Positions 7,102 through 7,343 of a DNA stretch of 7,353 bases are shown here, in pieces. Each line of letters begins with the position of its first letter. Positions within the stretch are counted from its first letter, which is position 1. The notes beneath the pieces were generated by a model. The model did not search any database. It worked only from the letters and a program-made list of their open reading frames with translations, and was not told the DNA's origin. This DNA is from a virus (taxonomy: Duplodnaviria > Heunggongvirae > Uroviricota > Caudoviricetes): the IMG/VR virus record IMGVR_UViG_2563366883_000002. One strand, 5' to 3'. The translations under genes and the position numbers were made by a program.

Positions 7102-7142
7102 GTAAAATCCCCGTCATATGGCAATCAGTAAAGGAAATAAAT

Positions 7143-7343
7143 ATGTCATCGAAAAACCGGACCCGCAGAACCACAACCCGCAATATCCGTTTCCCCAATC
7201 ACATGATTGAACAGATCAACATCGCCCTTGAGCATAAAGGATCCGGTAACTTTTCAGCGTGGGTTATTGAAGCCTGCAGGAGAAGGCTGGCAACAGATGC
7301 AACGCATCTGCGCCCGGCCAGCATGAAAAATAACGAGAAATGA
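7143..7343 (+). CDS. Small RHH-like protein, DUF3950 / YlcI-YnfO-type (66 aa)
   Basis: MSSKNRTRRTTTRNIRFPNHMIEQINIALEHKGSGNFSAWVIEACRRRL... shows the beta-strand/helix/helix pattern of ribbon-helix-helix proteins and resembles the small prophage proteins YlcI/YnfO that sit next to terminase genes in E. coli lambdoid prophages. ATG at 7143 has AAGGA 7 nt upstream. The longer track ORF starting at 7083 would overlap the HNH start and lacks an RBS. Confidence 0.65.
   Translation: MSSKNRTRRTTTRNIRFPNHMIEQINIALEHKGSGNFSAWVIEACRRRLATDATHLRPASMKNNEK

Follow-up and report, generated by a model that had tools for sequence, protein, structure and literature searches.

A strongly constrained YlcI/YnfO (DUF3950) protein encoded against the late strand of lambdoid phages is most likely a small ribbon-helix-helix DNA-binding protein

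Why does a tailed phage keep a tiny gene on the strand opposite to its packaging genes, and what might the encoded protein do? This question is raised by the right end of a 7,353-nt stretch of the virus record IMGVR_UViG_2563366883_000002 (Caudoviricetes). The whole stretch is referred to as the window; relative to the usual lambdoid map it is reverse-complemented. Its minus strand codes for the portal protein, a protease-capsid fusion, TerL, a TerS of the Terminase_2 type, and an HNH endonuclease. On the plus strand lies a gene for a YlcI/YnfO (DUF3950) protein, one of the accessory genes under the strongest constraint in these phages. Its product is most likely a small DNA-binding protein with a ribbon-helix-helix (RHH) fold like that of Arc and Mnt. 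The features of the gene itself are as follows.

7143..7343, plus strand: coding sequence of the 66-aa YlcI/YnfO (DUF3950) protein, stop codon included; supported by the open reading frame (ORF), by Pfam, NCBIfam and PHROG, and by a low dN/dS against the lambda allele
7132-7135, plus strand: Shine-Dalgarno sequence AGGA, 7 nt 5' of the ATG, read from the sequence; a purine-rich Shine-Dalgarno sequence is present in both variants of the 5' untranslated region (UTR) found in relatives
7143..7292, plus strand: conserved core, codons 1-50, putative RHH domain with the arm KNRTRRTTTR, the strand NIRFP, and helices A and B
7293..7340, plus strand: variable, probably disordered C-terminal tail ATDATHLRPASMKNNEK with a predicted local distance difference test score (pLDDT) of 42-60; the tails of lambda/YlcI and YnfO are unrelated

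The ORF consists of an ATG, 66 codons and a stop. The ATG at 7143 is taken as the start because every homologue begins with MSSKN or MSTKN, and an in-frame GTG at 7083, which would give a protein of 86 aa, was rejected on the same grounds. The product matches Pfam DUF3950 (PF13132; E = 4.2e-20, 71.8 bits, cutoff 25), NCBIfam YlcI_YnfO_N (NF041551; 35.3 bits, cutoff 30) and phrog_949 (E = 2.6e-33), and is 94-98% identical to database proteins. It has the size (50-80 aa) and the I-R-F-P ... N-F-S-A-W-V-x-x-A-C core of the family, and all invariant family columns (R16, F17, I25, F37, S38, W40, V41, C45) are present. The YlcI/YnfO-type identity proposed in an earlier note on this DNA is thus confirmed above curated Pfam and NCBIfam cutoffs, and the gene is an ordinary, already catalogued member of the family. 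It is also routine as a named prophage ORF in over a quarter of complete Escherichia coli genomes: the 954-bp right end of the window has matches in 1487 of 5426 such genomes, often in multiple copies per genome, and in 93 phage records, mostly Stx-converting lambdoid phages. An Rfam search of the window gave no match, and neither did PADLOC.

Comparison with the allele shared by lambda, DLP12 and Qin demonstrates that this is a real protein-coding gene and not a chance ORF. Over codons 1-50 the two alleles differ by 24 synonymous and 5 non-synonymous changes, and against the lambda allele dS is about 2 and dN 0.044, giving a dN/dS of 0.02 with saturated synonymous sites. The alleles are therefore anciently diverged in DNA, and their 90% protein identity stems from purifying selection rather than recent recombination. 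After residue 50, the tail of the window protein is unrelated to those of lambda/YlcI and YnfO. In phage records, matches at 90% identity reach no further than query position 878 (window position 7277); this points to a mosaic recombination junction at the end of the conserved core. The codon ending there (7275-7277) specifies Cys45 in helix B, which is invariant in 68 of 68 aligned family members and unusual among RHH proteins. A metal or redox role of this residue is conceivable.

What kind of protein is under such constraint? The core opens with the basic N-terminal arm KNRTRRTTTR, followed by the predicted beta-strand NIRFP, helix A (residues 19-32), a G-S-G-N-F-S turn, and helix B (37-55). 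A single-chain AlphaFold2 (AF2) model based on a 68-sequence alignment has an extended N-terminus, a helix at 19-32, a four-residue turn and a helix at 37-55, at a mean pLDDT of 72 and of 78-87 over residues 11-50. The strand N-I-R-F alternates polar and hydrophobic residues and aligns with N-L-R-W of Arc. In hhalign comparisons NIRFP falls in register on NLRWP of Arc and NFRMP of Mnt, weakly, with probabilities of 1-9% (Arc 9%). The turn K-G-S-G-N-F-S, whose N-F-S opens helix B and is invariant, agrees with the G-x-S/T/N pattern of RHH proteins. Foldseek searches with the AF2 model gave no significant match (E > 1), and the list of non-significant hits consists mostly of RHH proteins (ParD, NikR, NikA, Arc, MazE9, CdbA). 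Significant profile similarity to a known RHH family was not found: six of the 68 members matched HicB_lk_antitox (best E = 0.016) and one matched RHH_1 (E = 0.24), and a weak HicB-like match also appeared in the profile search of the window protein. Searches of PDB sequences with the protein and with the 68-member profile returned nothing for the RHH part and matched only the TerS part of fusion proteins described below. The earlier note had claimed a clear RHH-like N-terminus. The AF2 model, the turn motif and the Arc/Mnt register suggest that this is probably right, but a significant match to RHH families is lacking; the protein is therefore called RHH-like and not a member of the Arc family.

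The surroundings of the gene narrow down what such a protein could regulate. The relevant features lie immediately upstream.

6736..7101, minus strand: HNH endonuclease (Pfam HNH, E = 4.8e-7; phrog_589), the divergent neighbor and first gene of the packaging block
7102..7142, no strand: 41-bp spacer between the divergent HNH and DUF3950 starts, serving as 5' UTR and ribosome-binding region for both genes
7103..7108, plus strand: candidate -10 element TAAAAT for the DUF3950 transcript, invariant in six diverged relatives and without a good -35 element

The HNH ORF cannot extend beyond 7101, which leaves 41 bp between the two start codons. Of 80 near-identical viral contigs, 74 have an HNH gene as the upstream neighbor and two have a terS of the Nu1 type; the same allele class is found beside HNH/Terminase_2 and beside Nu1/GpA modules. 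Other alleles are likewise divergent from the first packaging gene, whatever the packaging type. In E. coli K-12, ylcI (DLP12, b4589) diverges from nohD and ynfO (Qin, b4533) from nohA, with a 388-bp gap. Both the divergent arrangement and the recurrence beside terminase genes, as described previously, are confirmed by these data. The gene is flanked by the lysis/moron region and by the first packaging gene and is read against the direction of late transcription.

The same note had suggested that the gene could be the first of an accessory cassette beyond the right edge of the window. Extension to the right does not bear this out. In the closest relatives inspected, E. coli SW070917 (97% DNA identity) and phage JLK-2012, a convergent gene for a lipoprotein with a TonB-C domain follows 131 bp past the DUF3950 gene, and beyond it lie late-strand Rz, KilA/Ant-type genes, and lysis genes. 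The next recognizable downstream gene is convergent in every case among the near-identical viral contigs. In 72 of the 77 contigs (out of 80) with an identifiable downstream gene it lies 130-210 bp away, the gap has no plus-strand ORF of at least 40 aa, and no adjacent co-oriented toxin or partner gene was found. The convergent neighbor and the empty gap indicate a one-gene unit that runs against the late operon in which it is embedded and that does not head a cassette.

An RHH antitoxin or repressor heading a cassette of toxin or other cargo genes would agree with RHH being the commonest DNA-binding fold of antitoxins and with structural matches that include ParD, TacA, VapB and MazE. It would also agree with the Qin-type arrangement, where ynfO is followed after 42-57 bp by a co-oriented DUF1398 gene (ydfO), and with the fused DUF3950-DUF1398 proteins P0290 and P0165. 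However, the DUF1398 (YdfO/YbcV) partner occurs only in Qin-type lambda-like prophages, DUF1398 is not known as a toxin, the C-terminal tail of the window protein is short and unconserved, and PADLOC recognized nothing. With these points and the convergent gene behind an ORF-free gap in 72 of 77 loci, a cassette role is very improbable, and the failed search for a partner gene argues that the protein is not a type II antitoxin. The DUF3950-DUF1398 fusions (P0290, 233 aa; P0165, 177 aa; L084 6757-7458; one cluster has 761 members) match the Qin ynfO-ydfO pair and could be real or read-through artefacts.

How, then, is a backwards one-gene unit expressed? Among relatives, the left half of the spacer is invariant and the right half exists in two versions. 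The segment CCATGTAAAATCC, which contains TAAAAT, is invariant in six diverged relatives; this conservation is no proof of a promoter, because the same bases form the start codon and ribosome-binding site of the HNH gene on the other strand. The one site that a consensus promoter scan revealed, at 7013-7041, is weak (9/12) and falls within the HNH gene, some 100 nt upstream. Downstream, no terminator was detected by scanning or by folding, and the RNA has no stable fold (z = +0.45). ExcludonFinder analysis of MG1655 RNA-seq data lists ybcW-ylcI as a convergent overlapping transcript pair (PMC12288877). Thus, at least the DLP12 copy is transcribed while late transcription is off.

These observations also bear on the idea that the transcript and not the peptide matters, the gene being an antisense or excludon unit that shields the packaging genes from transcripts reading through from morons upstream. 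A convergent layout without a terminator, the ybcW-ylcI excludon of K-12, and a promoter-like site of the convergent TonB-like moron's own would all suit such a function. The dN/dS of 0.02 with saturated synonymous sites, however, means selection on the protein rather than on RNA, and the family also occurs in co-directional chromosomal operons, so that this explanation appears highly unlikely. The convergent gene just right of the window (L001 10053-10379, minus strand) codes for a 108-aa lipoprotein with a TonB C-terminal-type annotation and is probably a lysogenic-conversion moron. Its promoter-like site is ATGACC-16-TAGAAT with an upstream TG (L001 10439-10412). The same record, a related prophage, carries two copies of the small RNA STnc100 upstream of its lysis region and outside the window (L001 17306-17515 and 17793-17998, minus strand; Rfam RF02076; 166 and 141 bits).

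Does the protein act on its neighbors, the packaging genes? The earlier note had raised a regulator of the late/packaging operon as one possibility and had suggested tests of DNA binding to the GTTAAC repeats, which form a compact array in the window.

6497..6640, no strand: six GTTAACA sites between HNH and terS, comprising three 23-bp direct repeats CCAGTTAACATTTTCTGAAAAAG and inverted pairs

All six matches of GTTAACA in the whole window (0.45 expected by chance) fall in this interval. Read on the plus strand, the sites also appear as a promoter-like TTAACA-18-TAACAT. They are absent from the lambda right end and from lambda-type loci, which encode a protein that is 90% identical over the RHH core and has the same predicted DNA-reading residues. 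For this reason the repeats were rejected as DUF3950 sites; the array tracks the Terminase_2-type TerS and probably represents TerS/cos recognition sites. The 41-bp spacer contains no repeat or palindrome, no inverted repeat was found in 6900-7160 (the spacer plus 250 bp upstream), and the only two short direct repeats of that region lie within the HNH coding sequence. HNH and terS moreover are located inside the long late transcript. Neither the suggested regulation of the packaging operon nor binding to the repeats is supported by these results.

A packaging accessory that binds at or near cos or regulates HNH and terS, and thereby helps or controls terminase, would explain why the gene always lies beside the first packaging gene, 0.2-0.7 kb from the cos region, and why this linkage recurs in three contexts (HNH/Terminase_2, Nu1/GpA and satellites). 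In satellites, the RHH-like core is even fused to the helix-turn-helix (HTH) of TerS, with GTT(T/A)AACAC arrays 5' of the fusion genes. However, one and the same 90%-identical core serves phages with unrelated TerS and cos, and GTTAACA is missing from the lambda-type loci. Being on the strand opposite to late transcription, the gene would be silenced just when packaging occurs. The fusions are confined to satellites and could reuse the RHH as a dimerization module. It is established for lambda that cos cleavage and packaging in vitro need only terminase, IHF, gpFI and proheads, and thus no such protein, and that the defined cosQ-cosN-cosB segment does not include 48109-48303, where the lambda homologue is encoded. 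The protein is therefore unlikely to regulate packaging or to assist at cos; its positional linkage and the TerS HTH fusions are the reasons for keeping such a role at a low probability.

Where else does the family occur, and what do its relatives do? An HMMER scan of 1.84 billion cluster representatives yielded only 103 matches, most of them frameshifted copies of the E. coli/lambda protein; most representatives of the family's 50%-identity clusters were frameshifted reads of the lambda region, and those that were such reads or lambda control DNA were not used. DUF3950 "genes" in Streptomyces, Pedobacter, Cohnella, Arcanobacterium and others (L093-L120, L147 and further loci) turned out to be lambda DNA and were likewise set aside. 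The 3.5-kb contaminant contigs correspond to lambda 45042-48488 at 99.8-100% identity, a segment that we take to be the nanopore control amplicon, and other contaminants are whole lambda genomes. True relatives are limited to Enterobacterales and Pasteurellaceae and occur in three contexts: a phage clade, a satellite clade, and a few chromosomal copies. The context of the distant loci was taken from precomputed gene calls. The chromosomal copies L184 3208-3387 and L187 5001-5180 are the closest non-phage relatives (51-64% identity). They are co-directional, 77 bp after cytochrome-bd subunit II, in a cluster with DUF2946, CopC and TonB-dependent-receptor genes.

In the satellites, which include phage-inducible chromosomal islands (PICIs), capsid-forming PICIs (cf-PICIs) and P4-like elements, DUF3950 is the sole opposite-strand gene between alpA(-int) and the Icd-like/primase replication operon. 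About 28 of 35 satellite loci contain 12-bp palindromes of the form GTG-N6-CAC in two to four copies, whose distances from the ATG are nearly constant at about -100, -77 and -30 (a 23-bp step). Examples are given below.

L085 5440-5600, L172 4915-4987 and L176 4899-4933: satellite palindrome loci, besides L179 and about 25 more
L179 4879-4936: three copies of the palindrome GTGTTTAAACAC, the own palindromes of protein P0293

The same search found no paired palindromes in the whole of lambda (48.5 kb) or in shuffled sequences, and one pair in 30 kb of JLK-2012, inside a kinase gene. The center of the palindrome covaries with the residues just before I-R-F-P: TTKG occurs with GTGCATATACAC or GTGTATAAACAC, xYKG with GTTTAAAC, KKH with GTGTGTTCACAC, and QKK or TKK with GTGTACCCCCAC or GTGCGGCCACAC. 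This covariation persists where the divergent Icd-like neighbor is nearly identical between satellites. Taken together, the sequence patterns suggest that the satellite DUF3950 proteins are operator-binding, autoregulated repressors at a divergent promoter. According to the PICI literature, no global repressor is yet known for the PICIs of Gram-negative bacteria (PMC6092414); satellite DUF3950 is a candidate for this master repressor.

Several satellites carry the fusions mentioned above, proteins of 120-129 aa that combine DUF3950 with the N-terminal HTH of TerS (L085 6001-6363, plus strand; L089 4714-5103). The fusions P0217, P0192 and P0219-P0223 match Pfam PF13132 plus PF03592, and their C-terminal part matches the DNA-binding domain of SF6 TerS (2cmp). 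Their HTH part shares 66% identity with residues 2-54 of the window TerS, the rest of which is absent from them, and the GTT(T/A)AACAC array lies just 5' of the fusion genes (L085 5891-5980). Such a protein may redirect the packaging of HNH/Terminase_2 helpers in the manner of Rpp. In E. coli CP027459.1 a satellite is inserted in the terL of a window-type prophage, after about codon 92 (L085, about 8040-8050), and this matches the published "helper-embedded PICI" (PMC10111431). In L188 4435-5109 (Pasteurella "phage" Pmp7) and in L171 and L175 4631-5608, a long ORF was called opposite the DUF3950 gene and the DUF3950 ORF was missed. The opposite-strand ORF of Pmp7 bears the name "transcriptional repressor"; these calls likely are mis-annotations.

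The operator arrangement of the satellites does not extend to the phage locus, and the phage gene is therefore not an autoregulated divergent-promoter repressor of the satellite type. The phage protein might instead act on the satellites. One possibility, which we consider quite unlikely, is that the phage copy is a captured, constrained homologue that acts in trans on satellite control by competing for operators or by forming mixed inactive dimers. In this picture the satellite regulatory hub would be the main home of the family, with a master repressor that binds GTG-N6-CAC, and lambdoid helpers, lambda included, would use their copies as a weapon or signal to hold back or trigger the satellites that exploit exactly these packaging modules.

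Alternatively, the core might be a protein-protein adaptor or decoy that binds a host or satellite protein, for example by pairing with satellite DUF3950 repressors in mixed dimers. That almost all residues are conserved between deeply diverged alleles, with no operator in cis, would be expected for an adaptor, satellites that parasitize exactly this phage type carry paralogues, and the obligate dimerization of RHH proteins would make an exchange of subunits physically plausible. However, the most conserved residues are those predicted to contact DNA (R16, the N-F-S turn and the basic arm), and the identity to the satellite paralogues is just 32-50%. An adaptor function is thus improbable.

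The explanation preferred here is a sequence-specific regulator that acts in trans. By analogy to Arc, MetJ and CopG, the N-terminal strands (R13-N14-I15-R16-F17) of two chains would form a beta-ribbon that inserts into the major groove of DNA. Indirect support for a dimer that binds DNA in this way comes from the palindromic sites of the satellite clade, which covary with strand residues. Bases would be read by R16, which is invariant, together with the variable positions immediately preceding it, and the DNA backbone would be held by the Arg/Lys-rich N-terminal arm and by the invariant N-F-S turn where helix B begins; the last ~16 residues are predicted to form a variable, disordered tail. 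The gene would have a weak promoter of its own, at the HNH gene's 5' end or within it, and would be expressed from there while late transcription is off, in the prophage or early in infection. The transcript would run into the convergent late-strand gene, with no terminator between them, and expression would be shut off by collision once Q-antiterminated late transcription passes through the DUF3950 gene. The protein would then function as a repressor-type regulator that probably acts neither on the DNA next to it nor on the packaging genes or a partner toxin; its target might be a host site or a satellite operator, among others. Strong constraint without a target in cis argues for a conserved target in trans, beyond the variable neighborhood. 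This combination of an RHH dimer, expression from its own promoter during late silence, convergent shut-off and action in trans has, in our judgment, about an even chance of being correct.

Several points weigh against it. The phage copies lack cis operators of the satellite kind, so that the predicted DNA binding of the phage protein has no identified site. No palindromes are common to window-type and lambda-type neighborhoods, and a search for the satellite operator sequences in the window and in lambda-type phages found none, except for two isolated near-matches in lambda. The evidence for a promoter in the window phage is weak. The satellite palindromes themselves could belong to another covarying factor such as AlpA. 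Finally, a literature search found no functional study of the YlcI/YnfO family.

The lambda genome offers a direct way into these questions. A tblastn search of phage records revealed an intact 64-codon ORF, identical to YlcI, at complement(48109..48303) of NC_001416.1 (L090 2710-2904, minus strand). It is the rightmost ORF of lambda, its start lies 199 bp from the right cohesive end, and the RefSeq record has no CDS feature for it. As the ORF is intact but unannotated, lambda genetics is directly applicable. The "orf-64" of the lambda literature is not the DUF3950 gene but another ORF, lambdap73, which lies between Q and S. Published mentions of ylcI mutations concern only read-mapping polymorphisms. 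A perfect 7-1-7 Fur box, TGATAATGATTATCA, is located 149-163 bp 5' of the DUF3950 ATG in every lambda-type locus, and a search of the window for it was negative.

Lambda 48452-48466: Fur box
L083 7595-7609: Fur box
L084 6594-6608: Fur box
L190 1338-1352: Fur box

Chen et al. (2007) ranked this Fur site among the strongest in K-12, found the nohA site positive in gel shifts, and credited it to nohA/nohB (PMC2189734). The Fur box may instead control ylcI/ynfO. The wider interest of the family lies with its distant relatives, which in Gram-negative phage satellites are placed, and equipped with operators, as a master repressor would be and plausibly represent the missing repressor.

How does the protein compare with known systems? 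Its nearest counterparts are K-12 YlcI/YnfO and the lambda ORF, which belong to the same Pfam/NCBIfam family, are ~90% identical over residues 1-50, and likewise diverge from the first packaging gene on the anti-late strand. There, however, a Nu1-type terS lies ~390 bp away, whereas an HNH gene lies 41 bp away in the window, which also differs by its unrelated tail and by lacking the Fur box and the DUF1398 partner. The satellite proteins share the Pfam family (32-50% identity) and the position as a lone opposite-strand gene divergent from an operon start. They differ in their site at alpA and the replication operon, in the two to four palindromes there, which the phage copy lacks, and in a longer inter-helix loop. 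For the satellite clade only, an analogy can be drawn to Stl of the Staphylococcus aureus pathogenicity islands (SaPIs) and to Rpr, the master repressors of Gram-positive PICIs, in which a divergent regulatory gene also heads a replication/packaging operon; Stl-type proteins are HTH repressors, though, and their sequences are unrelated to DUF3950. The RHH antitoxins (ParD, TacA/CopG, VapB, MazE and the C-terminal domain of HicB) provide the best structural neighbors and the weak HicB-like profile match, but the window locus has no cognate toxin gene and the protein no toxin-binding C-terminal domain. By analogy, the window protein would work most like Arc or Mnt, the immI repressors of P22. 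These, too, are small phage proteins built from x-N-h-R-h-P, a helix, a G-x-S/N turn and a second helix. Both immI and the window gene lie within the late region; immI has a promoter of its own there, and the window gene has a candidate for one. Unlike Arc and Mnt, to which homology is not significant (hhalign probability 1-9%), the window protein is encoded without an antirepressor neighbor or a detected operator, and it possesses an extra basic N-terminal arm and the invariant Cys45.

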